DNA of 64,000 nt from a virus (IMGVR_UViG_3300045988_167206:108686-172685), one strand, 5' to 3'. Counted from the first letter of the stretch, positions 27,303-62,000 are shown. Numbers and translations: made by a program. Notes: generated by a model from the letters alone, not told the origin.

Positions 27303-27320
27303 TCATTAAATTTTACATTA
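27303..27320 (-). promoter_or_regulatory. copy of conserved 15-mer RTAAAATTTAAAAAT (minus orientation)
   Basis: On the minus strand reads ATTAATGTAAAATTTAATGATATATTAAGGAG. About 25 nt upstream of ATG 27282. Confidence 0.6.
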
Positions 27321-27325
27321 ATTGA

Positions 27326-28339
27326 TTAAAGTCTTGCGTCATACATCTGCTGTACAAGCATTTCTACGTCTGATTTAAACAGTTTTACAGCTAATTCGTA
27401 TAATTCGTTAAGCATTCCAAGCTGCTCATCAATAAACTGAAGCCGGCTCTTACATTTAGGAGAATGTGTATCATTATATTTATTCATTCTGTATTTTGTG
27501 TTCATGTGATAAATGTCATCAAATTCTCTATACAGAATCATGTATCTGGATCCGAAATTATCTCCAGGAGCACGAAGAACTCTGTTTAAGATAGCTCTTT
27601 TCCCTGCAAGTGGAACATCCTTAACAAGGTTTGTAACAACACCTACATAGCCTTCGATCTGCTGATCTTTGAATTCTAACTGTTCATGCTGTTTGGAGAG
27701 TTCTCGTTTCTGAGCAAGAATACGATTATCTTTTTCATTCAGATCTTTCTGCTGAGATTCAAGCTGAAGTTTCTGGTCCTTGATAATCTTGTTCTACTGC
27801 GCCATAGCCTGCATATTTAATCTGAAGAAATTTTTTACATTTTCGTCAGCAAACGGCAGGTACGTTTCTACAAAGAGATCTTCCTGTCCAGGATTAATAT
27901 AACCCCCGGTCTTGCGAATAGTAGGAAGAACTTCTGCTGTAACCCAGTGCTTAAACTCTTTGGCTTTTTCGAGCTTGCTGCCGAGGATGAGAGAGTAGAG
28001 ACCGGATTCGTTGATCCAAACTGGATACTGAGTTCGTCCTAAACTATCTGTGATGGATGGGGTAACGTTTTGGACCCCCATCTTATCTTCTTCTGATACA
28101 TGATTACGAATTGCTTTACTTGTATTAAAATATCCCAACGCTTCAGCTACATCCTTGCCTACAAACCACGGTTCTCCCTCGATCGTAAGAGTACGAAGAT
28201 TACCGAACTCTGGATGAAGAGAAGAGTTAAAGATCTGGATCTGCGGTGGAGTAGTGGATTTGGTAGTGGAGGATGAGAATCCTTCTGTTACCTGCTCTGG
28301 TGTAATAGTTGCTGCGATTTTACTTGCGTTGCTTGTCAT
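27326..28339 (-). pseudogene. Bro-N/antirepressor-type gene (337 codons) interrupted by a single in-frame TAG at 27794-27796
   Basis: I translated 27793 down to 27541 codon by codon: 84 sense codons (NKIIKDQKLQLESQQKDLNEKDNRILAQKRELSKQHEQLEFKDQQIEGYVGVV...). They run in frame into the 71-aa ORF 27326..27541. Confidence 0.7.
27794..28339 (-). CDS. Bro-N domain protein (N-terminal product of the interrupted antirepressor gene)
   Basis: FGNLRTLTIEGEPWFVGKDVAEALGY...INESGLYSLILGSKLEKAKEFKHWVTAEVLPTIRKTGGY is the Bro-N/phage antirepressor signature. Confidence 0.8.
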   Translation of the reverse strand: MTSNASKIAATITPEQVTEGFSSSTTKSTTPPQIQIFNSSLHPEFGNLRTLTIEGEPWFVGKDVAEALGYFNTSKAIRNHVSEEDKMGVQNVTPSITDSLGRTQYPVWINESGLYSLILGSKLEKAKEFKHWVTAEVLPTIRKTGGYINPGQEDLFVETYLPFADENVKNFFRLNMQAMAQ

Positions 28340-28385
28340 AATTATTGTCTCCTTTAAAATTAATTTGTTTTACACTGATGATAAT

Positions 28386-28398
28386 TAAATTTTACATT
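28386..28398 (-). promoter_or_regulatory. copy of conserved 15-mer (minus orientation)
   Basis: On the minus strand reads AATGTAAAATTTAATTATC. 47 nt upstream of ATG 28339. Confidence 0.55.
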
Positions 28399-28494
28399 AT
28401 TAAATCTTAAAAATAAAAACATCAGTATTTATGAGGTTTTCAAGGTGCTGCACACGGAAGATTTGTACAAATGTAAAAACAATTGATATACTTT

Positions 28495-28528
28495 CAAATT
28501 TTACATTATAACCGGTACACGATGAGTA
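28495..28528 (+). promoter_or_regulatory. bipartite box TTACAT-N16-TGAGTATAT, overlapping an inverted 15-mer copy
   Basis: TTACAT at 28501-28506 and TGAGTA at 28523-28528. Same architecture as the boxes after hairpins U1-U4. 28495-28507 is also the reverse complement of AATGTAAAATTTG. Confidence 0.4.
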
Positions 28529-28570
28529 TATCACCAGCGAAAGGTAGTGTCAAGAGCTTTGAACGAAAAT

Positions 28571-28585
28571 AATGTAAAATTTAAA
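28571..28585 (+). promoter_or_regulatory. copy of conserved 15-mer
   Basis: AATGTAAAATTTAAAC, inside the non-coding control region. Confidence 0.5.
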
Positions 28586-28727
28586 CAGATATTTTGAGCC
28601 ATGTGAATGATGAGAGGGGAGGGAAAGGTAGGTGATGTTGCATTAAATAGGAAGAAACTCGTTATATTTGGTGCGAGATATAGAGATTTTGCGATCAGAA
28701 GTGCGATAGGAGAGTTGGAGATAGTAA

Positions 28728-28740
28728 ATGTAAAATTTGA
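28728..28740 (+). promoter_or_regulatory. copy of conserved 15-mer (3' half diverged)
   Basis: AATGTAAAATTTGA. Confidence 0.4.
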
Positions 28741-28991
28741 TGAGAGTGTATGGGGATTGTGAGGATTGAGACAAGATTTTGAGTGAATGGGGATGTGATA
28801 GGCGGGATGTTAAAATTGCAGTCAGTGTATGTGTGAACCGGCTTACCAAGAAACCATAAAAAAACATGCCTTTTTTGGTCAAAAGTACCCCCTACTTGCA
28901 CCTAAATCTTCAAAAAGACAATTGACAATAGGGATTGTTTGTCCCGGAATCCCTTTATTTATGCGGGTTTCCGGGCTTTTTGGAAAAATAA

Positions 28992-29040
28992 TAGTAAAAT
29001 TTAAAAAATGCATGGTTTCTATATGTACGGCGTGTATAAT
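28992..29040 (+). promoter_or_regulatory. 15-mer copy followed by an extended -10 (TGTATAAT)
   Basis: TAGTAAAATTTAAAAAATG at 28992-29010. TGTATAAT at 29033-29040, followed by GGGTAGTGTCAAGAG, a string also found at 28544. Confidence 0.45.
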
Positions 29041-29712
29041 GGGTAGTGTCAAGAGGATAAGCAATCCCTACTTGATAAATGTTCGTTATACTATCGGCGT
29101 GAGTGACCGCCGAACCTTGTAACCTATAAACCAATGAGTTCTACTGTATAGGAACGTTTAATAGCTATACAGGCACTTCAACAGCAGGTGAGGAGCGGTA
29201 AACTTTAATACCGATATCAAATTGAACCCTAAATAGGAAGTTCTTTTAATTTAAGCGGGTACAATACTGGACGTGGGGCGGGAAAGACCATATTAAGTAC
29301 TAGTAGTAACGACAGGTTGTACAGTAAAAATTCTCATATGAATACCGCTGAAAAAAGAGTATACTATAAATCTTTATCTTTGAAGAAATAGCTTGTTAAT
29401 AGATGTGGGCGAACAAGCTGACAGCAAGCCCGAACACTCAGGGCGGTACATTGAGAGAGTACCAAAAAACTACAGTTCTTCTGGAAATGTCAACAAGTAG
29501 TAATCTGGTGATTCTACTTTACGATAAGTACAGCGTGAAGTCTCTGATAGACTTCACAGGTGGTGCAAGTCTCTGATAGACAAGTACAGGAACAACAACA
29601 CACTTTCTGTATCTAATACCCATATGCGAAACGCGTGGCGAAAAATACAGTCTAACTATAAACAATGACGGGATAAGTCCGTCTAATTATAAGAAAGAAA
29701 GAGGTAGTTATC

Positions 29713-30477
29713 ATGTTAAAAGCTGAGAATATCATTATTAGAACCATTAACCATAAGCCAGAGCAGTTTGACAAAATCTGTGATTTTGTACGCTTCCTTG
29801 CATGGGATGCAGAGTACACTAACACAAAGAAGCAGTACTCAAAAATGACTGCTTTAATCACAGAACAGTTCCCGTTCGCTAATCTCAGTGAGATTGACGT
29901 AAAAGAATTGATTCTTGTTGACGGGTTGGAAGTCCAAAAGTTCATTGAAACACGCAAGCGTATGCGTGAACTTGATGAGATTCTGGACGAACTGGCTAAA
30001 CAGGGATTTACAAAAATCTCATATAACGCACTCAACAGCACAGACAAAGTGTTTTTGACTTTACAGGCTCATACAGCAGTAAAGGCTATTCAGATTGATG
30101 AGTCTGTACTCACAAAATCCAACGGGGAAAAACTGGACTTTGAACCACTTATCAATAAATGGATTGCAAACGGTCAGAAGTTCGCAGATATTCGAAAAGC
30201 ACTGTCAGCCGTTTTTTCCAAAATGGTCAACAGTGAGGGTGACTTGTTCTATCCTATCAAAATCAAAAAAAGTGATTTGCCGGAATCAGACGTTCGCCAT
30301 TTCCTTGGTGCATTCCTTGGAAAAACCGGACGTTCCGACAAGGGTAAAGGACGTTATCAGTATCTGACAGATATCTCTGATAAAAAAGTGCTGTCAGCAG
30401 TCACAGATCTTTATGCGGTCATTCTTGAAAGTGATTGTATTGAAGTGATTAAGTCAGAGCCACATAACGAAAAATAA
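29713..30477 (+). CDS. hypothetical protein (first gene of the plus-strand array)
   Basis: 254-aa ORF with AAGAAAGAGGTAGT SD. Followed by a strong terminator. Confidence 0.75.
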   Translation: MLKAENIIIRTINHKPEQFDKICDFVRFLAWDAEYTNTKKQYSKMTALITEQFPFANLSEIDVKELILVDGLEVQKFIETRKRMRELDEILDELAKQGFTKISYNALNSTDKVFLTLQAHTAVKAIQIDESVLTKSNGEKLDFEPLINKWIANGQKFADIRKALSAVFSKMVNSEGDLFYPIKIKKSDLPESDVRHFLGAFLGKTGRSDKGKGRYQYLTDISDKKVLSAVTDLYAVILESDCIEVIKSEPHNEK

Positions 30478-30500
30478 CCATTCTTGACAATTAAACATAA

Positions 30501-30527
30501 AAAAAGACCTTCGCGGGTCTTTTTTTA
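30501..30527 (+). terminator. rho-independent terminator
   Basis: AAGACC-ttcgcg-GGTCTT followed by TTTTTTT. Confidence 0.85.
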
Positions 30528-30552
30528 TTGTGAAAAAAATAAGGGGTAAAAT

Positions 30553-31287
30553 ATGAGCAAAAAAGGATTAAAACTGTATACAAAACAGTGTAAAGCATAC
30601 AATACAATTTTTGAAGGCTTTAAAGTTCCCGTTGGTGCATTTTATGGACGTATTTTAGTACCATATACAGACGGTATTTATCGCAGTTCGGATTATGTTT
30701 TTTGGGTATGTGATGACCCAAAAAGTATTAAAACAGGTATGCTTTCCATTCATATTATGAAACGCGAATGGGGTAATAATACTATTACTCGCGATATTCG
30801 CAAGACTACATGGCACGATATTAAAGTAGGAAAAAATCATCCAATTTATCAAACTGTATTAACAGAATGCTATAAACTTGGTGGAATTCCTGTAGTTAAA
30901 ACCTTTAAAAATCCGCAAATTTATGTTAATCGTGTATACACTGCACTAGCACATGAATATAGCTACCGTAAACATCCACAGCCACAGTCACGTTGTTATA
31001 AACAAGCACAAGTTGACGGTAAAAATTGGGATATTTCTTGGGAAGAAAACATTCAACCAATGCAGGATATTGACGGTTATAATTACAATGGTATGCCTGT
31101 ACAATATAATTCTGATAACACCAAACAAGCTCCTTTTACCTCTTTTGAAGGATTTACCGACACGTATGAAGCTCATAGACATGATGGTATGAAGGTTAAT
31201 CAGACTAAATGCAGACCTGAAAAACAACGTAATAATAATGCCATTATATCTATAAAAATCAACGGTGTTAATATTAACGTTAAATAA
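30553..31287 (+). CDS. hypothetical protein
   Basis: 244-aa ORF with AAGGGG SD. Confidence 0.7.
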   Translation: MSKKGLKLYTKQCKAYNTIFEGFKVPVGAFYGRILVPYTDGIYRSSDYVFWVCDDPKSIKTGMLSIHIMKREWGNNTITRDIRKTTWHDIKVGKNHPIYQTVLTECYKLGGIPVVKTFKNPQIYVNRVYTALAHEYSYRKHPQPQSRCYKQAQVDGKNWDISWEENIQPMQDIDGYNYNGMPVQYNSDNTKQAPFTSFEGFTDTYEAHRHDGMKVNQTKCRPEKQRNNNAIISIKINGVNINVK

Positions 31288-31349
31288 TTTGACATATATT
31301 CACTAACAGTATATTATGAGAGGAGGTGATATACTGGAGGTGAGAAAAT

Positions 31350-31643
31350 ATGATGATAGACAGTACAAAATTAATGTTTGGTGGATCTGATTGGTCTGTT
31401 AGAAGACGAGCAAGATTACTCGACCAAATGGATCAATATATTAAAGCACATATTAATTCATACGATGATTCTTCAATCAGAGAGTGGCGTATATTTGGAA
31501 TACTTGATAAATCTGATGAAGAAGTTCTTGAAATGGCAGAAGATTATACACAGTTTATTAATGCCTTATTTGTATTTCAAGGCATCGTTGCTGGTGAGAG
31601 TATAGACGAAATTCTCACTGTCAAAATTGGTCGTTTTAACTAA
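31350..31643 (+). CDS. hypothetical protein
   Basis: 97-aa ORF with GGAGGTGAG SD. Confidence 0.6.
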   Translation: MMIDSTKLMFGGSDWSVRRRARLLDQMDQYIKAHINSYDDSSIREWRIFGILDKSDEEVLEMAEDYTQFINALFVFQGIVAGESIDEILTVKIGRFN

Positions 31644-31665
31644 TAATCAACACCACACACATTAA

Positions 31666-31692
31666 GAAGCCCAACACCAGGGCTTCTTTTTG
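31666..31692 (+). terminator. rho-independent terminator
   Basis: GAAGCCC-aacacca-GGGCTTC followed by TTTTT. Confidence 0.85.
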
Positions 31693-31736
31693 TGTACAAA
31701 AAATATAGATAACACCACAAACCACCACATATCACA

Positions 31737-31806
31737 GTCCTATTGATGTGAGGAACATTCGCCGGTTCCACCCCTTACCGGTTGCAAGGTCAAACCTTGA
31801 TAGGAC
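31737..31806 (+). other. multi-stem structured element in the 5' leader of gene 31840
   Basis: Closing stem GTCCTATTGA/TTGATAGGAC encloses GGAAC/GTTCC, CCGG/CCGG and CAAGG/CCTTG hairpins. Confidence 0.45.
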
Positions 31807-31839
31807 GCTTGTAATGAACATACACAAGGAGGAGTTACT

Positions 31840-32055
31840 ATGTTTAAAAATCAAAGTCTCAGACTTATTATGCAATTAGAAAGTCAGCTGTCCGCAATTG
31901 ACATTCTAATCTCAGAAGCAGAGACTCGCTTCGATCTTGCAACTATTGAACATTATAATAAGGTTCGAAAAGTCCTTTCTCATAAACTCAATGTGATCTT
32001 GCAAGACCACAAGGAATCATTAGAACATGATTATGAATTAGTATATTCCTGCTAG
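31840..32055 (+). CDS. hypothetical protein
   Basis: 71-aa ORF with AAGGAGGAG SD. Confidence 0.55.
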   Translation: MFKNQSLRLIMQLESQLSAIDILISEAETRFDLATIEHYNKVRKVLSHKLNVILQDHKESLEHDYELVYSC

Positions 32056-32119
32056 TTCCCTTTAATTTTAATACATCATAGGTTACGTCTAATCCACAAA
32101 GGCGAGAAGGAGAATAACC

Positions 32120-32533
32120 ATGACAACAACAATCACAATAAAAGACTACAATGATGCAGTCACCCTGCTTAATGCATTTTACGGAGAGGACGGATGGCTC
32201 ATCTGCAACTATCTGGAAGATCCGGTTTTACAAGTTCGCACCCTCTGGGATAGCGACAACTGCAAGTCGAAAGCTATAAAGATTGCACTGGCAGTCATTC
32301 TTTCTACCGCTTGCGTAGAGGATGAAGAAATCCTGAACGACTGGGATGAATGGACGATGGCTGAATATCTGCATATAGATTATTGCCTGGATAATCCAGA
32401 AGATTACGAAAAATTACTCAAAAAAGCAGAAGATATAGAATCTCAGTTAGATGATTGTGATTGGAATATTATTGAGTTTTTGAATAATCAGAAAGAGTGT
32501 CGTGTGTTCGACACAACATGCTGGATAAGATAA
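32120..32533 (+). CDS. hypothetical acidic protein
   Basis: 137-aa ORF with GAAGGAG SD. Confidence 0.65.
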   Translation: MTTTITIKDYNDAVTLLNAFYGEDGWLICNYLEDPVLQVRTLWDSDNCKSKAIKIALAVILSTACVEDEEILNDWDEWTMAEYLHIDYCLDNPEDYEKLLKKAEDIESQLDDCDWNIIEFLNNQKECRVFDTTCWIR

Positions 32534-32556
32534 AAGGAAGAGAGGAGAATAACCAT

Positions 32557-32784
32557 ATGAATATGAATGCCATCCAGACAGAAGCAGCCATGCATGATTT
32601 ACTTATTCGTGTCGGTAGAAATACCGATCCGAACTACATTTCAATCAAAAATCTCTTGATTTCATACATGTATAACACATGTATTTCAAAGAGCAAAATC
32701 TACGAGATCTTCGTAGAGTTCTGTAATACTGGAGTGTTACCGGCGATGAGTACCGTACCAGGATATTACAGATATAACAAATAA
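32557..32784 (+). CDS. hypothetical protein
   Basis: ORF track 32497..32784 trimmed to ATG 32557 (GAGAGGAG upstream). Confidence 0.55.
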   Translation: MNMNAIQTEAAMHDLLIRVGRNTDPNYISIKNLLISYMYNTCISKSKIYEIFVEFCNTGVLPAMSTVPGYYRYNK

Positions 32785-32841
32785 TAAAATGGTAATTTTA
32801 AACATACATGTATAAATATATAGGAGAAAGAGGGTGTTAAT

Positions 32842-32916
32842 ATGGTTTTACTTATCGGATATACTCCTGTTGATGTAATTATTGCACCACTTATTATAGA
32901 TATATTTAGAAAATAA
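32842..32916 (+). CDS. 24-aa hydrophobic peptide MVLLIGYTPVDVIIAPLIIDIFRK
   Basis: Not in the ORF track. TAGGAGAAAGAGGG SD upstream. Confidence 0.35.
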   Translation: MVLLIGYTPVDVIIAPLIIDIFRK

Positions 32917-33105
32917 ACACAAAAATGTAATCCTGAATTATATCAATTCAAATTTCAAATTTGCTATAAAATCATATTACTTGCCGATTTGAAACTTGGG
33001 TTTTGAAATAGGATCGCATTTTTTGTACCGACCCACCCCAGTAGTGAAGCTACGAAAATAAATATACACCTGATATACAGGGAAATAAGAAGGAGAGAAA
33101 ACATC

Positions 33106-33657
33106 ATGAAAAAATCATTCAACGCAAATATTAAATCTGCAATCGAAACAATCGTCACGATTACTCTTGCTACACTTGCAGTAGCATGTCAGCCTTCACC
33201 AGTAAATGCAGCTACGGAAACATTTTTGGATTCTATTACTACTAAAACAGAATCTACATCAACTGGAACTCTGTATACATTCAGTGATGGAACCGGTTAC
33301 TATGAAGAGAAATCAGACGCAACAGAAGATTTTTCTGATGGATTAAAGAAACCAGATACAACAGCGTTCGCTCCAACGCTCAGATATTCAATGGACGGAA
33401 AGTATTATCCACTCACTGGAATTATCACATCAATAGTTCCAGACGCAGACGCAAGAGAAAATGTGATCACTTTCGAATGTGGAAACGGAAACATGTTCCA
33501 GTTTACAGATTCTACAAATGCAGACTGGGATACATATGATCTTGTATCTTGTGTCATGGATAACAATGGAACTGCAATTGTATATGACGATGAAGTTGTT
33601 ACGACAATGTACGCAGGATATACAGGACAGTTCCAGGAGATTGAAGGAAGAGATTAA
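33106..33657 (+). CDS. putative secreted lipoprotein
   Basis: N-terminal MKKSFNANIKSAIETIVTITLATLAVAC: basic n-region, hydrophobic core, lipobox-like LAVAC. Confidence 0.6.
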   Translation: MKKSFNANIKSAIETIVTITLATLAVACQPSPVNAATETFLDSITTKTESTSTGTLYTFSDGTGYYEEKSDATEDFSDGLKKPDTTAFAPTLRYSMDGKYYPLTGIITSIVPDADARENVITFECGNGNMFQFTDSTNADWDTYDLVSCVMDNNGTAIVYDDEVVTTMYAGYTGQFQEIEGRD

Positions 33658-33696
33658 ATATGTTATAATAAATAAAAAAGAAAGAGGTGAAAGGAA

Positions 33697-34065: not shown

Positions 34066-34083
34066 TAATAACAAAATCAACTA

Positions 34084-34939: not shown

Positions 34940-35002
34940 TAAGATTCTAGTTACCATACAATAGTAAAAATTAAAAACACATAAAAGAAAGAGGTAGTAA
35001 AA

Positions 35003-36061: not shown

Positions 36062-36080
36062 AAGTAAGATTTAAAAATTA
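36062..36080 (+). promoter_or_regulatory. variant copy of conserved 15-mer
   Basis: AAGTAAGATTTAAAAATTA (one A-to-G change). Confidence 0.4.
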
Positions 36081-36092
36081 TTAAAATAACAC

Positions 36093-36121
36093 TTGCGTTT
36101 TAGATATGTAGGTGCTATTAT
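36093..36121 (+). promoter_or_regulatory. sigma-70-like promoter candidate (TTGCGT-17-TATTAT)
   Basis: Spacing read directly from the sequence. The spacer string TTTTAGATATGT recurs at 41245 and resembles the box in hairpin unit U1. Confidence 0.35.
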
Positions 36122-36133: not shown

Positions 36134-36150
36134 AAGTAAAATTTAATAAT
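36134..36150 (+). promoter_or_regulatory. copy of conserved 15-mer
   Basis: AAGTAAAATTTAATAAT. 30 nt upstream of ATG 36180. Confidence 0.55.
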
Positions 36151-36422: not shown

Positions 36423-36534
36423 CGATAAATAACGCTTTACGCGATATTTATATATGCAACACAAGTAACTATTAATCAAAGCAAACAGTTTTTGACTTGC
36501 TACCAAAACTGACTCTTACGTACACCCACAAATA

Positions 36535-36616
36535 CATCCTGTATCATGATCCAATTGAACGGTTCAACCTCTAGTCGAAGGTACGTTTTTCCAGATACGG
36601 AAATTGATGCAGGATG
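36535..36616 (+). other. long imperfect hairpin B1 (82 nt)
   Basis: CATCCTG-ATCA-AATT pairs with AATT-GAT-CAGGATG and encloses smaller hairpins. Confidence 0.5.
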
Positions 36617-36622
36617 TCATAT

Positions 36623-36709
36623 CAATAAGATAATTCAGCATCTTACTCATTGGTGGGGTGAAACCTAGACCCACCCTCCTTCTTATAAAGGTATTGAATT
36701 ATCTTATTG
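36623..36709 (+). other. long hairpin B2 (87 nt)
   Basis: 13-bp perfect closing stem AATAAGATAATTC/GAATTATCTTATT encloses GGTGGG-N12-CCCACC. Confidence 0.55.
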
Positions 36710-36717
36710 AGAGATAA

Positions 36718-36735
36718 AAGTAAAATTTAAAAATT
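36718..36735 (+). promoter_or_regulatory. copy of conserved 15-mer
   Basis: AAGTAAAATTTAAAAATTAAGGAG. 16 nt upstream of ATG 36751. Confidence 0.6.
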
Positions 36736-38451: not shown

Positions 38452-38778
38452 ATGATGAATCCAGATCCAAAGGAATATAACTACGATGATTGCAAACTGA
38501 AATTTTACAGAGGGAAATATGAATTCGGTGGTGGAACTGCGCTGATGGCTATTTGTGATACCGGAGAACCATATGCAACTATCTCTGTAAATTTTGATGA
38601 AGTAAAAATCCCAAAGGATCACATCTTCCTCGACATGAATAACTGCAAGCATTTATGTCAGCAGATGATTGATGATGGTTTACTTGAACTGACCGGGTTG
38701 CAACGTCCATCAGGATTCTGCATTTATCCGGCGGCCAGAATGACAGACAAGCTCAAAGAGATTCTGGAAGATTTTTAA
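38452..38778 (+). CDS. hypothetical protein
   Basis: ORF track 38401..38778 trimmed to ATG 38452 (GAGGAAG upstream). Confidence 0.6.
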   Translation: MMNPDPKEYNYDDCKLKFYRGKYEFGGGTALMAICDTGEPYATISVNFDEVKIPKDHIFLDMNNCKHLCQQMIDDGLLELTGLQRPSGFCIYPAARMTDKLKEILEDF

Positions 38779-38792: not shown

Positions 38793-38810
38793 AAGTAAAA
38801 TTTAAAATAA
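38793..38810 (+). promoter_or_regulatory. copy of conserved 15-mer
   Basis: AAGTAAAATTTAAAATAA. 50 nt upstream of ATG 38860. Confidence 0.55.
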
Positions 38811-39091: not shown

Positions 39092-40027
39092 ATGAGTGCA
39101 CACAATGAAGAATTTGACCGTAGCAAATGTTTTACCTTCTTTGAATCATATTACACTACAGGTAAGATGATTGAAGAAATAAAAGGTAAAGATATCGCTT
39201 ACGAATATTATAAAGCGATTATTGAGTATGCTTTATACAAAAAACCGATAGAGAATAAAGAAATACTTCTCTATGCAGGTGGAGACACCGCCCTTAGAGT
39301 AATTGATTCATCTCAAGAAAGACGAGCGAGAGGTTTTGGTGAGAACACAGAAAGAACTCAAGCAATTATAGAATTTGTCAGAGATCATCCTGGAGTATCA
39401 CAAAATGAAGTCGCTGCTCAAGTACATTGCAGTAAAGGAAAAGTAAACCAGGCTCTGAAAAATTTCAGAGAAGGAAAATATGTAGACACATTCGATTTCA
39501 ATATCATCATAAATGGTAAGGAGTACCGCTCAGATGGTCAGGTCGTGACCGATCAATCAGAGAGCGAATATGAAGTGATTGATGATGGTACCGAAGATAG
39601 TACCGCTATGGTACCCGGTACTTATATACATACTGATACTGATAATGATATTGATAATGATAGTACTGACCGGTACCGGTACCGCGATGCGGATAGCCGT
39701 ATAGCCGGATCAGTCACAGAGAGTCGCTGCGCTCCAGAGATCGCTGACGCTCCGATCGCTAACGCTCAAAAAGATCCTGAACGAGAAAAGAAGAGGGAAG
39801 AGAATCTTAATCACTTCAAATCTCTTGATTATGGTGGAATCATGTCAAATGAACTGATCCCTGAAGTTTGTGAAGCTCAGTATGCAAGAGAAGAGTATGA
39901 GGATGAAACTATAGATGAGAAAAGAGAACGCTTAATGAAATTTCTTACAGGTGGTTTTGTTCGGGCAAAAAAAGAATTTGCAGAGGAGCTTGTTGACACA
40001 GTTATTACCGGTAACGGTAGGTTATAA
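39092..40027 (+). CDS. putative DNA-binding protein (winged-helix segment; acidic repeat region)
   Basis: 311 aa. FVRDHPGVSQNEVAAQVHCSKGKVNQALKNF looks like an HTH. D/N-rich low-complexity tract DTDNDIDNDSTDRYRYRDADS. Confidence 0.55.
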   Translation: MSAHNEEFDRSKCFTFFESYYTTGKMIEEIKGKDIAYEYYKAIIEYALYKKPIENKEILLYAGGDTALRVIDSSQERRARGFGENTERTQAIIEFVRDHPGVSQNEVAAQVHCSKGKVNQALKNFREGKYVDTFDFNIIINGKEYRSDGQVVTDQSESEYEVIDDGTEDSTAMVPGTYIHTDTDNDIDNDSTDRYRYRDADSRIAGSVTESRCAPEIADAPIANAQKDPEREKKREENLNHFKSLDYGGIMSNELIPEVCEAQYAREEYEDETIDEKRERLMKFLTGGFVRAKKEFAEELVDTVITGNGRL

Positions 40028-42682: not shown

Positions 42683-42826
42683 ATGGATTTTTTAGAAGAG
42701 AAATGGATTAAAGATGGTTGTCATATTGATGAAACGCCAGATTATGAAATGGAAGATAAAGAAAGATTAAAAGATGCGTTACGTGCATTAGATAGAACAC
42801 TTGACAATTTCAAAAATAGAAAGTGA
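42683..42826 (+). CDS. hypothetical small protein (47 aa)
   Basis: Not in the ORF track. ORF fills a gap, but the SD is distant. Confidence 0.35.
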   Translation: MDFLEEKWIKDGCHIDETPDYEMEDKERLKDALRALDRTLDNFKNRK

Positions 42827-49634: not shown

Positions 49635-49656
49635 ATGTAAAATTTAAAAATATATT
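49635..49656 (+). promoter_or_regulatory. copy of conserved 15-mer with extended match
   Basis: ATGTAAAATTTAAAAATATATT. 31 nt upstream of ATG 49687. Confidence 0.6.
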
Positions 49657-49686: not shown

Positions 49687-49944
49687 ATGAAACAGATTAT
49701 AAAATTTATAGACACAGATGTTGATGGCTGTGGCACAAATATAGAAATAATGATTCAAATTAAAGGTAAACATAAAATAACAAATGAAGTCATTCGAAGA
49801 ACAGAAGATGTTATTGAAAAATATAAAAAAGAAAATAAAGAAGAATGGGATACTGATAGCATTATCAATATAGCATGTGAACATTTAAAAACAGAAGGTT
49901 ATACATGCTACTACATTGTAGAAGAAGCAACAATTGAATTTTAA
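49687..49944 (+). CDS. hypothetical protein
   Basis: Track ORF trimmed to ATG 49687 (AAAAGGAGA upstream). Confidence 0.55.
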   Translation: MKQIIKFIDTDVDGCGTNIEIMIQIKGKHKITNEVIRRTEDVIEKYKKENKEEWDTDSIINIACEHLKTEGYTCYYIVEEATIEF

Positions 49945-55450: not shown

Positions 55451-55453
55451 ATT

Positions 55454-55738
55454 ATGACATTAAAAGAATTATTTAAACAAGGAAAACTTCAGCTTGAAGT
55501 TGGACCTATAAAAAAATATTCTGCGGTTGATATTGATTTTCTTACAAATGACGGAGTAGAAGATGAGATTCAGTTAAATGTAGAAAATAATATTCTTACA
55601 AAAGCGGGAGAAGAGGAATTAGAGGAGTTGTTTGCTTCTCTTACAAAAGAATTTAACACTCGAAGTGATTTTGTTCTTTCTTGCACGGTAGTTGCAACAG
55701 CAAATACATATAAAAAATTAGTTGAAATGGGATATTGA
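55454..55738 (+). CDS. hypothetical protein
   Basis: 94-aa ORF directly upstream of the RT gene. Confidence 0.55.
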   Translation: MTLKELFKQGKLQLEVGPIKKYSAVDIDFLTNDGVEDEIQLNVENNILTKAGEEELEELFASLTKEFNTRSDFVLSCTVVATANTYKKLVEMGY

Positions 55739-55747
55739 GGTGGTCAA

Positions 55748-57013
55748 ATGAAAGATTATTTATTAGAGAAATTCTTTGAATCAGACCGATGGGAGAATGC
55801 TATTGAAACAGGAGTTATTAAGGGAATTGATAAATCAGAATTAAGAAAGCTTTGTAGTCCAGAGTATAGATTAACATTATTGAATGCAATCGTTACTAAT
55901 AATTACGAGATAGCTCCTCCACATCAGGCATTGATTCCAAAAGATAATGGAGAATTTAGAACAGTTTATGTTAATGAAGGAATGGACAGAGTGTTCTTAT
56001 CTATTGTAAATGATATGTTATTTGAACTTGATCATGACTCTATTCATCCAGCATGTAAAAGTTATCAGAAAGGAATTGGCTGCGGAAAAGTAGTTCAGGA
56101 AGCTGTTAGAAATATAAAACATATTCAAAGACAAGATATTGGATTTAAGGCAGACTTAAGTAAATACTTTGATTCGGTTCCGATTAAGTTTATCGAAAAA
56201 GAATTTAAGCGGATCGAAGAAAGATTTGGAAGATCAAAAATAATTGATGTATTAAGGAAATATTATCATGCAGATTTATGTTTTAATCCAGACGGAAATC
56301 TTATCGAACATTATCAAAGTCTTAAGCAGGGTTGTGCCGTTGCAAGTTATCTGGCTGATTGTGTGTTGTTTCACATTGATAAAAGATTAAATATCATGTG
56401 CGATGGATATTATGTTAGATATTCTGATGATATTCTATTTATTGGTGATGATTATGCATCGGCAATGGCTGCGCTTAAAGACGAATTAGAGAAAATGCAA
56501 ATGAAATTAAATCCAAAAAAGGTAGAATTGCTTGATAAAGATCATTGGTTCAAGTTTTTAGGATTCATGATTAAAGGTGATCAGATCAGTTTATCCAAGA
56601 GTAGAGTCAAAGACTTCCAAAAAGAAATAGAAGCAAGAACAATTAAAAAGAGAGATACAACTAAAACAAAAGCTATAAATAGTGTGAATAGATATCTTTA
56701 CAAAGGTGATGGAAAGTATTCCTGGGCAACTTCAGTATTGCCGATAATTACCGTGCAGAAAGATATTGATACACTGAATGAATTTGTTATGGATTGTATT
56801 AGGGCGGCAGAAACAGGAAAGAAAAAAGTAGGTGGTTTAGGATGTGTTGTAGATAAGGATAATTATACGATTCTTAGAGGAACCGGAAAAAATGTAAAAG
56901 CAAATAAAATTAAAACAGAAAAATATATTGAAGGATATAAGAGTATACGATGTATGCAGAATGCATTGAATTACAGCAGGCCGTTGTATGAAACATTAGT
57001 GAGGGAGATGTGA
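55748..57013 (+). CDS. reverse transcriptase (stand-alone, group-II-intron-like palm/fingers plus thumb-like C-terminus)
   Basis: RT motifs in order: IPKDNGEFRTV (1), SYQKGIG (2), FKADLSKYFDSVP (3), SLKQGCAVASYLADCVL (4), YVRYSDDILFIG (5, YxDD), LNPKKVELL (6), FKFLGFMI (7). Confidence 0.9.
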   Translation: MKDYLLEKFFESDRWENAIETGVIKGIDKSELRKLCSPEYRLTLLNAIVTNNYEIAPPHQALIPKDNGEFRTVYVNEGMDRVFLSIVNDMLFELDHDSIHPACKSYQKGIGCGKVVQEAVRNIKHIQRQDIGFKADLSKYFDSVPIKFIEKEFKRIEERFGRSKIIDVLRKYYHADLCFNPDGNLIEHYQSLKQGCAVASYLADCVLFHIDKRLNIMCDGYYVRYSDDILFIGDDYASAMAALKDELEKMQMKLNPKKVELLDKDHWFKFLGFMIKGDQISLSKSRVKDFQKEIEARTIKKRDTTKTKAINSVNRYLYKGDGKYSWATSVLPIITVQKDIDTLNEFVMDCIRAAETGKKKVGGLGCVVDKDNYTILRGTGKNVKANKIKTEKYIEGYKSIRCMQNALNYSRPLYETLVREM

Positions 57014-57015
57014 TT

Positions 57016-57372
57016 ATGTATATTGTACCAAGGATAGAAGTAAGAGAAGTAGAAGATATTATTGATTTTGCTACAACAATGGATTCAGATATGAACTTAT
57101 ACTTTGAAGAGAAAAATGAATTATTGGAAGATGTTCCGAAACGTAAAAATGATTGTGGAGCTGTATTTTATCCGGCTGTTATTAATCCTCGATTATTTTA
57201 CGCCTACATTTTAAAAAGACAGTGTTTTCGGGATGGTACATATCGGTGGAATTTATGTATTTCATGTAGGGAAGATGAAGATTGTTGTATGGTATTAGAA
57301 ACTATGAAAGGTACTGAAGAAGAAGCAAAAGAACGACTTTCAATAATTCTTACTTCCGGAAGTATTAGATGA
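57016..57372 (+). CDS. hypothetical Cys-rich protein
   Basis: Track ORF (GTG start at 57010) trimmed to ATG 57016 (GAGGGAG upstream). Overlaps or abuts the RT stop. Confidence 0.6.
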   Translation: MYIVPRIEVREVEDIIDFATTMDSDMNLYFEEKNELLEDVPKRKNDCGAVFYPAVINPRLFYAYILKRQCFRDGTYRWNLCISCREDEDCCMVLETMKGTEEEAKERLSIILTSGSIR

Positions 57373-57381
57373 GGTGATCAT

Positions 57382-58014
57382 ATGAGAGAATATTTATTTT
57401 TATATAGAATTAAAAATTCTGATGATCGCGATTGCTGTGCATATATTAATGCAGCCGGTCCAAAATTTGAATGTAATCATTATTTTGGATCTATTACATT
57501 GCGTGGTAGCTGCTATTCTGGTAAAGAGTTTCCCGAATATAAAGAAATCGAAACGTTTCTTACAAAAGATGAATATGAAGAGATTCTTACATTTAATATA
57601 TTTATTAAATCGCTGGGATATGGTATTACCAAGGGAGATAGTAAATACAAAGCAGGCATTAAACTTATTGATTCCATTAAACATATCTATGACAAGTTAA
57701 AGTCTGATGAGGCGTTTGCTTTCTTTGAAGATATTCAGAATAGTGAAATGGAATATTTAAAAGAAGAATACAATTTATCAGATCGTGATATTAAAAAAAT
57801 ACTTAATGAATATACAGAAGACTTTAGAGATCGCAGTATTGTAAGTTATGTATATGATGATAGTGAAGAAGCTGGACGCGAAGAAGCTTGGCAGTTAGGA
57901 TATGATTCAATTTCTTCTAAACATTTTGGCTATAAGAAATTCGGAGAGAATTTAGTTAAAAATGATTATTTTATGAAATTATGTGATGGAAGAGTTGTGA
58001 GATTAAATTATTAA
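57382..58014 (+). CDS. hypothetical protein
   Basis: 210-aa ORF with GAGGTGA SD. Confidence 0.7.
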   Translation: MREYLFLYRIKNSDDRDCCAYINAAGPKFECNHYFGSITLRGSCYSGKEFPEYKEIETFLTKDEYEEILTFNIFIKSLGYGITKGDSKYKAGIKLIDSIKHIYDKLKSDEAFAFFEDIQNSEMEYLKEEYNLSDRDIKKILNEYTEDFRDRSIVSYVYDDSEEAGREEAWQLGYDSISSKHFGYKKFGENLVKNDYFMKLCDGRVVRLNY

Positions 58015-58033
58015 TGAGAATTGAGGTGTAATT

Positions 58034-58615
58034 ATGGGCTGGACTTCTTATCATGCAGAATTTTATAAAAACGGAACTGTTGATCGGAAAAAAGAAGTTG
58101 ATAAACTATGGACCCAGCAAGAAAGTGAAAAATATCCTGAGTTAAATGTATTGAAATCAAGAATGGTTGGTTCTACATATTATGCAGCAATTGAAGAAAA
58201 AGAAAATGGTGTTACTAAACAGGTATTCGCTGTAGTTGTATTAACATCTATAAATATGAAAGACTATTTTAATTTCTCCTATAAAGACATGTGTGAATCA
58301 GCTGGACCATATCGTTACAATTGTCCTAAAGGAATTCTTGATTTGCTGACAGCAACGGATAATGAATATGCAATAAACTGGAGAAACAAGTGTAGAGAAA
58401 ACATTCAGAAGAAAAAAGAAAAATTAACAAAAGGCACATTACCAATAGGCAGCATAATAAGATTCAAAAAATACAATGGTGAAATTGTAGTATTAGAAAA
58501 AATGCATGCAATGTATCAGTTTAGGAGATCTTGGTGGTATTGTGCAGACTCTAATACATATTTTCCACTTGGTCATATACCGGATGAATTTGAAATTATA
58601 AGAATAGGAGCGTAA
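58034..58615 (+). CDS. hypothetical protein (MGW-start conserved phage family?)
   Basis: 193-aa ORF with GAGGTG SD. The pattern MGWTSYHA...YKDMCESAGPYRYNCPKGILDLL resembles a DUF family from memory. Not verified. Confidence 0.65.
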   Translation: MGWTSYHAEFYKNGTVDRKKEVDKLWTQQESEKYPELNVLKSRMVGSTYYAAIEEKENGVTKQVFAVVVLTSINMKDYFNFSYKDMCESAGPYRYNCPKGILDLLTATDNEYAINWRNKCRENIQKKKEKLTKGTLPIGSIIRFKKYNGEIVVLEKMHAMYQFRRSWWYCADSNTYFPLGHIPDEFEIIRIGA

Positions 58616-58617
58616 TT

Positions 58618-59229
58618 ATGGAATTAAATAAAAAAATTGTAGATGTTATTGAGAATAGTGGATTTAATTATGATGGTGTTGATGAAAACGATGGTTATAG
58701 TGTTAGACTTTATCAAAGTACACCCGCAGGAGAAGATTGGGGTTTAATAATATGGTTTGATGGAAGCGATAATGGTTTTATTTATGCATTTAGAAAATAT
58801 TCTGAATCATTTGATGTAGATAAAGAAGTAGAATTTTGGGTTGAATTAAGAGGAAAAAATGGTATTCCAAGTAGTATCAGAAAAATAACAGAAATATTAA
58901 ATGATGCTGAATGGAAAAAAGAAAAGCTTGGATTGTTACTTAATGATTTAGAAGATATTGATTTTAGAGAAGATAATGTATTAACGGTATTTATATTAGA
59001 TCATGTAGATGATGAAGCAAAACCAATATTATATATGATACCATTAAATAAACAGCTTGAAGTAGAAAAATTAGCAAGATCATTAAAGGTAAATGAGTAC
59101 TATAGTGAATTCGAAGATTTATTAACTGATAATCATATTAAATATGAATGGATGGGAAGCATTTATAGTGCTAAAAATAGACAAGAGAATTGGATTGATG
59201 ACAATATTGCAAGAGTAATAGTTGGATAG
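58618..59229 (+). CDS. hypothetical protein
   Basis: 203-aa ORF abutting the upstream stop. Confidence 0.7.
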   Translation: MELNKKIVDVIENSGFNYDGVDENDGYSVRLYQSTPAGEDWGLIIWFDGSDNGFIYAFRKYSESFDVDKEVEFWVELRGKNGIPSSIRKITEILNDAEWKKEKLGLLLNDLEDIDFREDNVLTVFILDHVDDEAKPILYMIPLNKQLEVEKLARSLKVNEYYSEFEDLLTDNHIKYEWMGSIYSAKNRQENWIDDNIARVIVG

Positions 59230-59263
59230 TGAATAGTTAAATAAAACGCACAGGAGAATAAAT

Positions 59264-59923
59264 ATGGGATTAGATATGTATTTATATAAAGCAGAGAAAC
59301 TTGATGAAAATGTTACATTAGAAGATATTCTTCTACTCAATGATTATTTTGATTGGAAGGAATACGGCCAGAAATATACTTTTGAAAAATGGTGTGGAAA
59401 AGATATTAAAAAGGTTAAGAGAAAACTAATTCCATTATATAAAAATGAATATAAAGAAATGTATTGGGATTGGGACACAGAGCATAAATATTGTCATAGA
59501 TCTTTACTTGAACAGTTAGTATCTTGGAGAAAAGCAAATCAGATTCATAATTGGTTTGTTGAGAATGTGCAGGATGGAAAAGATGATTGCGGTTGTTATG
59601 AAGTAACTAAAGGACAACTTGAAGAACTACTTGATACATGTATAAAAGTGAAAGCAGCTTCGAAATTAGTAAAAGGTAAAGTAAATAATGGTTATACATT
59701 TAAAGATGGAGTTGAAATACCAAATGTAGAAGATGGTAAATATATTGAGGATCCAACAACTGCAATGGAATTACTTCCAGCCCAATCAGGATTTTTCTTT
59801 GGAAGTACAGATTATGATCAGTGGTATATGAGTGATATTGATTATACAATTGAGAAAATTCTTAAGGTATTAAAAACAACAGACTTTGATAAGGAAATTG
59901 TATTCTATAGAAGCTCTTGGTAA
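59264..59923 (+). CDS. hypothetical protein
   Basis: 219-aa ORF with AGGAGAA SD. Confidence 0.7.
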   Translation: MGLDMYLYKAEKLDENVTLEDILLLNDYFDWKEYGQKYTFEKWCGKDIKKVKRKLIPLYKNEYKEMYWDWDTEHKYCHRSLLEQLVSWRKANQIHNWFVENVQDGKDDCGCYEVTKGQLEELLDTCIKVKAASKLVKGKVNNGYTFKDGVEIPNVEDGKYIEDPTTAMELLPAQSGFFFGSTDYDQWYMSDIDYTIEKILKVLKTTDFDKEIVFYRSSW

Positions 59924-59949
59924 AGGATAGTTAAATAAGGAGAAAAGAC

Positions 59950-60063
59950 ATGGGAACAAATTTGGTGATAAAGGATATTGAATTTAATGGAGCTATGTTA
60001 AAGGCAGCTCAAGATATAGAAGGAAAAATTGGGGTTGGAGTATCTTATATTTGTTACATATAG
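59950..60063 (+). CDS. 37-aa ORF, possibly a gene fragment
   Basis: Not in the ORF track. AAGGAGAAAAG SD. MGTNLVIKDIEFNGAMLKAAQDIEGKIGVGVSYICYI ends at TAG. It resembles the start of phage antirepressor N-terminal domains but stops early. Confidence 0.3.
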   Translation: MGTNLVIKDIEFNGAMLKAAQDIEGKIGVGVSYICYI

Positions 60064-60079
60064 AAAAGTCTATATTAAG

Positions 60080-60253
60080 ATGAAACATATAGATCCTAAT
60101 ATCAATTGGAAAAATCTTGAAAATAGATATATGCAAAAATATGGCAAATCACAGAAAGGAAAAGTGAGCAAAAGGATGATCATTAATAAAAGTGATAAGT
60201 TATTAGAAAAATTTAAAAGAGCTGTAGATGTTATGATTGTAGAAATGAGGTGA
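60080..60253 (+). CDS. hypothetical small basic protein
   Basis: Track ORF 60029..60253 (TTG start) trimmed to ATG 60080. Weak SD. Confidence 0.4.
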   Translation: MKHIDPNINWKNLENRYMQKYGKSQKGKVSKRMIINKSDKLLEKFKRAVDVMIVEMR

Positions 60254-60255
60254 TA

Positions 60256-60342
60256 ATGATATTTAGAATAGCAATTGCAGTTTTTGTATTAATGTATGTA
60301 ACAGCAATTATTATGTGGATCAAAGAACGGAGGAACTTCTAA
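60256..60342 (+). CDS. 28-aa hydrophobic peptide MIFRIAIAVFVLMYVTAIIMWIKERRNF
   Basis: Not in the ORF track. GAGGTGA SD. Single TM helix with a basic tail. Confidence 0.4.
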   Translation: MIFRIAIAVFVLMYVTAIIMWIKERRNF

Positions 60343-60420
60343 TGTATAAGCAGGAGTTTTGTGGAATTACAATTTTTACTTATGAACTTTTTGATGAAGG
60401 AGAACTCGGAGGGATAAATT

Positions 60421-60684
60421 ATGAAATATAATATTAGATTACTTTTCGCTTGGGATGATGTGGACGAAATGGAAAGTTATACAATAACCGTACCAGATCA
60501 AGTTACTCTTAGCGATGTGGAAAACAAACTATGTGAAAATCATGAATTCCTATGTAAAAATGATGAAAAAGATACATATGGCATAGAAGGAAGAAATCCT
60601 GATACATTAATTAGATATACATGCGAAAAAGAAGGGTGGACATATGAGGAACCTTCTTATGATCTGGATTTAAATTTTGAATAA
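60421..60684 (+). CDS. hypothetical protein
   Basis: 87-aa ORF with GGAGGG SD. Confidence 0.55.
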   Translation: MKYNIRLLFAWDDVDEMESYTITVPDQVTLSDVENKLCENHEFLCKNDEKDTYGIEGRNPDTLIRYTCEKEGWTYEEPSYDLDLNFE

Positions 60685-60702
60685 TATTGGAGGGTTAATT
60701 TA

Positions 60703-60924
60703 GTGAATAATATTTGGTTATATGGATTTGATGGGTTTAATGGAATTAAAGTAGTTGGTTTTGTCGTAGCAAATAACGAAGATGAAGCATACAGCAAAAT
60801 TATTGAAATGTATAACGATTTTGGAACTGATGAATATAATTTAGAAGATCTGGTTGTTTGGCTTCCTAAAAATGATGACAATTATAGAGAGGATTATCCA
60901 GATGTGATGGAAATTATTTATTAA
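60703..60924 (+). CDS. hypothetical protein (GTG start)
   Basis: 73-aa ORF with TGGAGGG SD 9 nt upstream of GTG. Confidence 0.5.
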   Translation: MNNIWLYGFDGFNGIKVVGFVVANNEDEAYSKIIEMYNDFGTDEYNLEDLVVWLPKNDDNYREDYPDVMEIIY

Positions 60925-60985
60925 ACAAATAATGTAAATATTAAAAGAGCACACTTAAAATATACAATGTCAACATAATTTAATA

Positions 60986-61107
60986 ATGCTGCTGAACTCC
61001 TGGTATAACCGGCCTTCATCTGGATATCTCCAGCTGCTTTCCGGTCCAACCAGGATTCTGCAGCATCTATATGATACTGTTACAGATATGTGCAAGGTTG
61101 ATGAGTA
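60986..61107 (+). repeat. structured unit U1: 81-nt imperfect hairpin plus conserved 3' box
   Basis: Hairpin at 60986-61066 (ATGCTGC/GCAGCAT, GAA/TTC, TCCTGGT/ACCAGGA, ACCGG/CCGGT, CTGGA-tatc-TCCAG). Followed by CTATATGATACTG-TTACAG-N16-TGAGTA. Confidence 0.6.
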
Positions 61108-61152
61108 TATTTAATGTAATGCCGTAGTGTAACGGAAGGTAAATGAGATATA

Positions 61153-61273
61153 TTCAATTCAATTATGATCCATAATGAGAGAGGAGCTGCTTCAGATATC
61201 TCTGAAGCTGCGCCTCCACATATGGATCATTCTATATGATTCTGTTAAAGAAATGTACCGGAATATATGAGTT
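61153..61273 (+). repeat. structured unit U2: TTCAATT box, 66-nt hairpin, conserved 3' box
   Basis: TTCAATTCAATT. Hairpin at 61165-61230 (ATGATCCATA/TATGGATCAT, GGAGC/GCCTCC, GCTTCAGA-tatc-TCTGAAGC). Followed by TCTATATGATTCTG-TTAAAG-N17-TGAGTT. Confidence 0.6.
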
Positions 61274-61317
61274 TATCTAAAAATAAAGCATAGAATAATG
61301 TATATCAACAAGGTAAT

Positions 61318-61455
61318 TTCAATTCAATAAAGTGAGGCATAAAGCCGCAGGCTATTCATCGCTCCTGAATTATCATTCCGGCGACGATGACTATCTCGGC
61401 GGCCATGCCTCCATTATATGAAACGGTTAAAGAAATATTCCATAATTATTGAGTT
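61318..61455 (+). repeat. structured unit U3: TTCAATT box, 78-nt hairpin, conserved 3' box
   Basis: TTCAATTCAAT. Hairpin at 61334-61411 (GAGGCAT/ATGCCTC, GCCGC/GCGGC, TCATCG/CGATGA, apex ttatc). Followed by ATTATATGAAACGG-TTAAAG-N17-TGAGTT. Confidence 0.6.
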
Positions 61456-61486
61456 GATATAAAAATAACAGAAAGGAAACAATAAT

Positions 61487-61963
61487 ATGTTGACATATTA
61501 CGATAATTTGGTTGATTGGGTAAAATGTGGTCATGCCTATTGTATTAATTTAAGAACTAAAACAATGCAGTTAACATCAAATGAAAAATGTATTGACAAT
61601 GGAAGTTGGTATCCTGATGCTGATTTAATTCATATTGATAGAATTGAGACATGCGAATACAAGAATCTACGTTGCTTGAATATCATCGAAGATCTTTATC
61701 GTGATTACAAATATTCAGTTCCATCTGAAAATAGTGAAAGAACGAAAAGGAGAGATTATTTCAAAGCATTATCTCCGGATGAAATGACAGATAAAGAGTT
61801 GGCAACGGGGATGGATAGAAATATTGCGAAAGCGAAACTTGAGGGATTTATCCTGTGTGCTTCATTGGCAGGATATCTTACTTGGGATGAAAAACTTATG
61901 GGAAAATGGTTTTACCAGGGAAAAGATAAAGATTTGGTGATTTTGAGAGAATGGATGGAATAA
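61487..61963 (+). CDS. hypothetical protein
   Basis: 158-aa ORF, the first gene after hairpin units U1-U3. Confidence 0.65.
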   Translation: MLTYYDNLVDWVKCGHAYCINLRTKTMQLTSNEKCIDNGSWYPDADLIHIDRIETCEYKNLRCLNIIEDLYRDYKYSVPSENSERTKRRDYFKALSPDEMTDKELATGMDRNIAKAKLEGFILCASLAGYLTWDEKLMGKWFYQGKDKDLVILREWME

Positions 61964-61980
61964 TTTTTGGGATTAATAAT

Positions 61981-62000
61981 ATAAAATTTAAAAATATATT
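61981..62000 (+). promoter_or_regulatory. copy of conserved 15-mer with extended match
   Basis: ATAAAATTTAAAAATATATTAAGGAG. 19 nt upstream of ATG 62019. Confidence 0.6.

Follow-up and report, generated by a model that had tools for sequence, protein, structure and literature searches.

The closest described system to the one considered here is that of the Bacillus phage SPbeta, whose genome carries the 15-bp SPbeta repeated element (SPBRE; Lazarevic et al. 1999, cited in Kohm et al. 2023, PMC10516654). The master repressor of SPbeta, MrpR (YopR), binds SPBRE in ten promoter regions and represses them, as established by sequencing of affinity-purified chromatin (ChAP-seq), electrophoretic mobility shift assays (EMSA) and lacZ fusions (PMC10516654). 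The late genes of SPbeta are read by the phage polymerase YonO from a single start site upstream of yonK; the promoter of YonO is undefined and has no described consensus (PMC5467207). In this work we analysed a 64,000-nucleotide stretch of viral DNA (IMGVR_UViG_3300045988_167206:108686-172685, the whole of which is called the window), where an initial annotation had pointed out an orientation-locked 15-mer upstream of at least 12 genes on both strands. By analogy with SPBRE, this motif is probably the word that serves as operator for a master repressor which the phage itself encodes and which belongs to the MrpR (YopR) family, and most likely we are looking at a fresh example of a known control system and not at a novel kind of promoter.

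When the SPBRE copies are read from the SPbeta genome (AF020713), each of the 11 points the same way as the gene downstream of it and ends 15–36 nt before the start codon. SPBRE is immediately followed by the ribosome-binding site at yopM and yopV, the yopV copy lies just past a TTGACA-17-TATAGT promoter, and a minus-strand copy precedes yonP-yonO. Two direct copies at yonX surround a TTGATT-17-TATAAT sigma-A promoter. The anatomy in the window is the same. In both phages the words are non-palindromic, about 15 bp long and found only near non-structural genes, they are co-oriented with the gene and have the ribosome-binding site next to them, they follow or flank sigma-A promoters, and one copy heads the operon or gene run with the YonO polymerase gene. 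The paired copies are 72 bp apart in the window, 73 and 69 bp in its relatives, and 64 bp at yonX. Both phages also have a YonO polymerase, an HU-like gene, a module resembling yopP/Q/R, and an MrpR-family protein. The hosts differ, Bacillus for SPbeta as compared to a gut Firmicute of Ruminococcus type here.

The repeated word is real. It is a non-palindromic sequence of about 15 bp in the intergenic regions of non-structural genes, and its number is far over chance. The exact 15-mer RTAAAATTTAAAAAT was counted three times in the window, at 36720, 49637 and 61981, where 0.04 copies are expected. With at most two mismatches there were 18 matches (6.6 ± 2.7 expected), and a further loosened search found 22 (8.5 expected). 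The true core of the repeat is the 11-mer GTAAAATTTAA, with 8 exact copies as compared to 0.26 expected, a number reached in none of 100 shuffles, and an unbiased count over the 45 nt preceding the ribosome-binding sites gave GTAAAATTT as the top 9-mer. All 12 copies listed in the initial annotation are present, 0–5 nt from the positions given there, with the core G at 27316, 28395 and 28504 on the minus strand and at 28574, 28730, 28994, 36064, 36136, 36720, 38795, 49637 and 61981 on the plus strand; we name the copies by these positions. The degenerate copy claimed at 60931 was also found, with its core G at 60934 on the plus strand. Alignment of the 12 copies gave the consensus aAtAAw-GTAAAATTTAAaaAta, which can also be written aaTAAw-GTAAAATTTAAaaAT (as a 21-mer of the window, AATAATGTAAAATTTAAAAAT), and no conserved -35 element. 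The longer match said to be common to three copies holds for 27316 and 61981 (...ATATATTAAGGAG), but not for 49637, which reads ATATATTAACG.

We built a position weight matrix (PWM) from the 12 copies and scanned the window with a cut-off of 12 bits. Seventeen sites reached at least 12 bits, the 12 training sites among them, as compared to 1.5 ± 1.1 in simulated sequence; a weak copy at 34964 falls under the cut-off. Every one of the 17 agrees in strand with the genes around it (minus up to 28.4 kb, plus from there on), and the annotated agreement with the downstream gene is borne out. The range of 16–50 nt between motif end and ATG in gene-proximal copies also matches our measurements, as does the concentration of five copies in the divergent control region, which we place at 28.38–29.01 kb.

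The distribution of the copies follows the layout of the window, which is AT-rich (about 32% GC) and in which the late and early arms diverge out of one control region. The leftward arm (1–28.3 kb) carries the portal, the terminase, ten tRNA genes, an HU-like gene, a 955-aa protein, Thg1 and a Bro-N/anti-repressor-like gene, and the rightward arm about 78 genes, most of them small. Outside the control region and the rightward arm, motif copies are found only at the first genes of the leftward arm, and the PWM scan found none in the intergenic gaps of the structural arm (1–26 kb). The 955-aa protein is a YonO-family polymerase (Table 1), and its PHROG, phrog_8308, is also matched by SPbeta YonO, with 1220 bits. 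The polymerase gene lies downstream in the leftward run headed by motif copies; the first gene of this run is the 96-aa gene at 26992–27282.

It had been proposed that the motif occupies a spacer/-35 position and that it may be a promoter for the YonO-like polymerase or for a phage sigma factor or appropriator. Neither proposal agrees with the placement. At the early sigma-A-like promoter P_L and at the promoter in 36093–36121, copies are found about 14–20 nt upstream of the -35 and 14–20 nt downstream of the -10, thus before and after the visible sigma-A elements, and they do not replace the -35. In the gene-proximal copies the Shine-Dalgarno sequence starts 2–10 nt past the core. This leaves no room for a sigma-70 -10 about 12 bp downstream, and the reading as a MotA box or -35 was rejected; these copies cannot have their -10 and start site downstream of the motif, because the mRNA would lose its ribosome-binding site. 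A promoter for the YonO polymerase is not supported either, since the intergenic regions of 1–26 kb lack the motif, which heads the very run that encodes the polymerase. Pfam scans of the open reading frames (ORFs) of the window revealed no sigma factor, second polymerase, MotA, AsiA or gp55-like protein as a candidate factor. The words of the T4 middle (MotA box and sigma-70 -10) and late (TATAAATA) promoters are similar in being phage-specific, orientation-locked and present at many genes, but here there is no space for a -10 12–13 bp downstream of the word, the T4-type factors were not found among the window ORFs, and the word changes between close relatives. The evidence instead favours the second option of the annotation, an operator for a phage regulator, with binding drawn from the analogy.

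For comparison we used 47 IMG/VR loci with a polymerase 46–78% identical to that of the window, and none of the 47 carries the window core. The closest type, with L121, L122 and L153 as its representatives and L168 and L178 as extensions, shows synteny with the window; its late proteins are 77–91% identical to those of the window and its early proteins about 32–88%. At orthologous positions the L121/L168/L178 type bears another word, aaTAAT-G(T/A)TTTAATCAA, also seen in the form aaTAAT-GTTTTAATCAA (L121-type word: AATAATGTTTTAATCAA). Both the window and the L168 type have their word before the 96-aa gene or its ortholog (L168 5900, minus strand, GTTTTAATCAG, orthologous to the 27316 copy) and before the Bro-N gene (L168 7098, minus strand, GTTTTAATCAA, the ortholog of the 28395 copy). 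The L168 type also has the word on both flanks of P_L, with both copies inverted relative to the window, at the position of the 36720 copy (L168 13908, plus strand), and after the ortholog of 38452–38778, where GAATTAATCAA is found at the place of the 38795 copy. The pair with 73 bp spacing is found in L168 around TTGATT-17-TATATT, after a ParB-like gene, and the one with 69 bp in L178 around TTGACA-17-TATAGT, further on. The hexamers of P_L are identical in the L121/L168 type, and the L127 type keeps TTGACA and has TATTAT as the -10. That the whole set of words has been replaced at kept positions points to a reader which is encoded by the phage and co-evolves with the word, and not to the host sigma-A.

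The lambdoid phages lambda, 434 and P22 are syntenic relatives with different operator words at the same positions and diverged repressors, which makes them heteroimmune. The likeness to the present phages is that the word differs at the same positions in syntenic relatives and is paired with diverged putative repressors, but lambdoid operators are palindromic and belong to one control region, whereas the words here are asymmetric and spread over tens of kilobases. The exact 15-mer gave 120 single chance matches in AT-rich viral contigs, which is uninformative, megablast of 27–39 kb against GenBank phages gave no match, no relatives of the ParB-like protein were found in viral contigs, and de novo k-mer counts over whole loci were swamped by coding repeats.

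It is conceivable, but unlikely, that each copy is instead a phage-specific promoter of about 20 contiguous bp with the start inside its A/T-rich 3' part, read by a phage polymerase, by a phage sigma-like factor, or by the host RNA polymerase with TAAAAT or AATAAT as the -10. A promoter would agree with the strict co-orientation of copies and genes, with the many short motif-bearing gaps in which no other promoter is visible, with the L168 copy directly before a conserved non-coding stretch, and with the concerted change of the word, which resembles the promoter-polymerase co-evolution of T7-like phages. Furthermore, TAAAAT is present within every window copy, and AATAAT or TATAAT before about half of them. 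The L121 type, however, has no hexamer equivalent to TAAAAT at the same offset, and no -10-like hexamer (A at 2, T at 6) stands at a constant offset in both phage types. The promoter explanation also has to face that the motif heads the YonO-family polymerase run and is missing from the late-arm intergenic regions, that neither a sigma factor nor a second polymerase was found in the window, that the paired copies bracket independent sigma-A promoters, and that SPBRE, identical in anatomy, has been proven to be a repressor site. A scan of 27.2–39.2 kb for the sigma-70 consensus showed no overall enrichment (42 as compared to 46 expected), with only P_L and promoters near 31.3 kb standing out, and a strong sigma-A promoter was sought upstream of each stand-alone copy and not found.

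A candidate for the reader is encoded in near-identical genomes. Locus L170 shares 99.5% identity with the last 9.7 kb of the window, and the matching genomes are contigs of about 173 kb from human-gut metagenomes. The 61981 copy is conserved in loci L170–L175, and further copies are found beyond the window in the near-identical contigs, one of them preceding the gene of an NAD-dependent ligase. Some 9 kb beyond the end of the window, three genes in a row encode a tyrosine integrase, a homologue of YopQ (in L170 28% identical, E 3e-17) and a 298-aa MrpR-like protein (L170 19022–19918, outside the window). The latter matches Pfam MrpR_N_CB (63.6 bits, E 2.8e-17), over its full length phrog_5830, the PHROG of SPbeta MrpR (E 2e-41), and weakly the core-binding-domain protein 9rd5 in the PDB (E 9.5e-6). 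It is about 26–29% identical to SPbeta MrpR; the recombinase Arg/His/Arg are absent and the Tyr is kept, in an alignment that is approximate at such identity. The asymmetry of the sites fits MrpR, since this protein is a monomer with a recombinase fold. The homologue of the L121 type (L178 8703–9635) is 36–39% identical to that of the window type, as compared to 64% for the adjacent ligase. Autoregulation of the MrpR-like gene is possible, as the run that it closes is headed by a variant copy (L170 15603), in the way of SPBRE at yopM. Integrase genes adjoin the MrpR-like gene. A relative with 76% polymerase identity lies inside a 499-kb scaffold of Ruminococcus sp. AM36-2AA; this integrated relative supports a temperate lifestyle for the group. 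The phage of the window is an uncultured SPbeta-like gut phage, with relatives that occur as Ruminococcus prophages.

From the analogy with SPbeta we infer the MrpR-like protein to be what binds the word, and the binding to be repressive. A catalytically dead protein with the tyrosine-recombinase fold would, in the lysogen, occupy each asymmetric site of 15–20 bp, located either on both flanks of sigma-A promoters or, at non-structural genes, after the promoter and before the ribosome-binding site. The binding would silence the early and replication genes, and also the gene run with the YonO-family polymerase, thereby the late genes. The stand-alone copies may also carry a weak -10 element of their own, AATAAT or TAAAAT.

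Several points weigh against an MrpR-family repressor. Its gene is outside the window, as seen from the near-identical genomes, and only the N-terminal Pfam domain scored, the full-length likeness coming from a PHROG profile and a low-identity alignment. The window word GTAAAATTTAA and the SPbeta word AATATGTATA, preceded by ACAAATACAAA, have only a loose TAAT..GTA likeness in common; heteroimmune relatives would be expected to differ in their words, and that of the L121 type is different again. The copies are also denser here, at least 12 in 64 kb as compared to about 11 in 134 kb. The strict co-orientation is unexplained by a simple repressor model, although SPBRE has it too, and both copies flanking P_L are inverted in the relative. 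Finally, the covariation of word and protein does not single out MrpR, because other early proteins are equally diverged, for instance the winged-helix protein of 39092–40027 at 38%.

This winged-helix protein, or the Bro-N/anti-repressor-like protein of 27794–28339, might then be the one that uses the word as its operator, but we find this quite unlikely. Both have domains of DNA-binding type, both are strongly diverged in the relative (38% identity for the winged-helix and 46% for the Bro-N protein), and both genes are found directly downstream of motif copies. The motif is asymmetric, though, and winged-helix regulators would usually be expected to bind palindromes as dimers; Bro-N proteins are annotated as anti-repressors, and neither family binds the analogous SPbeta element.

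An action in the mRNA is very improbable. T4 RegA and RegB are models for mRNA-level action near the ribosome-binding site, and the motif could in the same way serve, just 5' of the ribosome-binding site, as a processing site or translational operator for a phage RNA-binding protein or nuclease. It directly adjoins the ribosome-binding site and is strand-locked, and among the phage genes is one for a beta-CASP nuclease. The reading as an RNA element was nevertheless rejected, since copies occur upstream of a sigma-A -35 and before non-coding stretches, the P_L copies are inverted in the relative and one of them is upstream of P_L and would not be transcribed from it, and the analogous SPBRE acts on double-stranded DNA.

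Two extensions of the operator set of an MrpR-family repressor can be imagined. The word could be a cassette of two parts, a constant 5' wwTAAT-G and a 10-mer which differs between the two phage types, and each copy would be a self-contained, orientation-dependent switch that unites a promoter with an immunity-specific operator. The constant part would perhaps be a minimal -10 and the variable part be read by a fast-evolving MrpR-type protein, and the pairs of MrpR and word would be a readable specificity code for recombinase-fold repressors. We regard this as tentative and rather doubtful. More radically, the MrpR-like protein or another phage factor could activate transcription from the sites during lytic growth.

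Table 1. Motif copies, promoters and polymerase-associated genes in the window. Positions are counted from its first nucleotide.
Feature	Position	Strand	Remarks
HU-like gene, counterpart of SPbeta yonN	18899..19174	-	34% identity to YonN, E 1e-13; near polymerase gene
YonO-family single-chain RNA polymerase gene (955 aa)	19878..22745	-	phrog_8308, E 1.3e-83
Motif copy GTAAAATTTAATGAT	27302..27316	-	25.2 bits; 19 nt before ATG of 96-aa gene 26992-27282
Motif copy GTAAAATTTAATTAT	28381..28395	-	Upstream of Bro-N/anti-repressor-like gene 27794-28339
Motif copy GTAAAATTTGAAAGT	28490..28504	-	Begins 20 nt downstream of P_L -10
Sigma-A-like early promoter P_L, TTGACA-17-TATACT	28525..28553	-	11/12 matches; TG before -10; motif copy on each side
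Motif copy GTAAAATTTAAACAG	28574..28588	+	20 nt upstream of P_L -35, on opposite strand; points rightward
Motif copy GTAAAATTTGATGAG	28730..28744	+	20.1 bits; within 1.3-kb stretch without convincing ORF
Motif copy GTAAAATTTAAAAAA	28994..29008	+	After terminator-like hairpin, before conserved non-coding stretch 29.0-29.7 kb
Variant copy GTAAGATTTAAAAAT	36064..36078	+	Upstream one of pair around sigma-A-like promoter
Sigma-A-like promoter TTGCGT-17-TATTAT	36093..36121	+	Between two motif copies; weak consensus match (8/12), position conserved
Motif copy GTAAAATTTAATAAT	36136..36150	+	14 nt past -10; 72 bp from 36064 copy
Exact copy	36720..36734	+	Directly followed by taaggag; ATG 16 nt downstream
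Motif copy GTAAAATTTAAAATA	38795..38809	+	16 nt past stop codon of previous gene
Weak copy ATAAAATTTTATGAA	42649..42663	+	14.3 bits; 34 nt before gene starting at 42683
Exact copy	49637..49651	+	Abuts stop codon of previous gene; 35 nt before ATG at 49687
Degenerate copy GTAAATATTAAAAGA	60934..60948	+	13.1 bits; precedes 560-nt non-coding repeat region
Exact copy ATAAAATTTAAAAAT	61981..61995	+	23 nt before ATG of 401-aa gene

In the control region a weaker sigma-A-like promoter on the plus strand, TTGATA-18-TATAAC at 28483–28512, faces P_L. The predicted starts of the two nearly coincide near 28520, and the 28504 copy lies in the spacer of the weaker one; L168 has a similar facing promoter, TTGTCA-17-TATAAG. 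In the structural arm, AGTTAGTTTTNWTTAACTT is found in two minus-strand copies (4443–4461 and 6158–6176), upstream of the genes at 3809–4381 and 5630–6094. Two copies are barely over chance (1 of 100 shuffles), and although the sequence could be a late-gene signal for the YonO-family polymerase, it was rejected as a late-gene motif, as a counterpart in SPbeta was looked for and not found.

L127 and L183 represent types left out of the comparison of words, as too little of their early regions was covered. Around P_L, L127 (5605–5681) and also L124, L136 and L154 have a 19-nt inverted repeat with the core AAGCTAAATTAACT instead of the window's word, which may be a third operator type, and tandem copies of ATGCATAAAATTAGC are found near the L127 P_L. 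L183 is the prophage in the isolate Ruminococcus sp. AM36-2AA (QTYB01000001.1, 378700–401555; polymerase 76% identical), and its control region has direct repeats of its own, GTTGAAACTATCAAwAATAAATT, 93 bp apart. As this isolate is cultured, the prophage could be an experimental handle for the phage group.

The ten tRNA genes are on the minus strand at 12935–13011 and 16944–18859 (two Leu, Tyr, Trp, Ser, Thr, Gly, Met, Pro and Asn) and have several hundred bases of structured non-coding DNA between them (17420–18130, for example), which matches no Rfam family at the gathering score. At the equivalent place SPbeta has a 1.7-kb non-coding stretch between yonN and yonK. The polymerase gene is flanked on the minus strand by RNA-handling genes at 15219–16664, 22727–24487 and 25203–26099, for a beta-CASP/metallo-beta-lactamase nuclease, an amidoligase-like protein and a Thg1-like tRNA-His guanylyltransferase, and a 421-aa reverse transcriptase (55748–57013, plus strand, Pfam RVT_1, E 2e-21) is located amid the small early genes. 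Non-coding repeats of about 35–55 nt (TATATGAwACnGTTAAAGAAAT...), in 3–4 copies spaced by about 180 nt, flank the 401-aa gene at 61058–61468 and 63201–63396. GC-richer non-coding stretches without convincing ORFs are found at 36423–36719, 28600–29700, 31644–31839 and 32785–33105. The one at 36.4–36.7 kb is conserved at the nucleotide level in L168 (13600–13890), where a motif copy lies directly before it. Rfam searches of the non-coding stretches after motif copies gave no match even at E ≤1.

If the word is the operator set of an MrpR-family repressor, it would mark the genes under lysogenic control, the run with the YonO-type polymerase included, although it does not reveal the YonO promoter. 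The two words GTAAAATTTAA and GTTTTAATCAA would then belong to two natural repressor/operator pairs, of use in studies of DNA reading and of the evolution of heteroimmunity. It would also imply that the lysogeny circuit of SPbeta, a recombinase-fold master repressor with a scattered asymmetric operator word, extends beyond Bacillus and into large uncultured prophages of human-gut Firmicutes.

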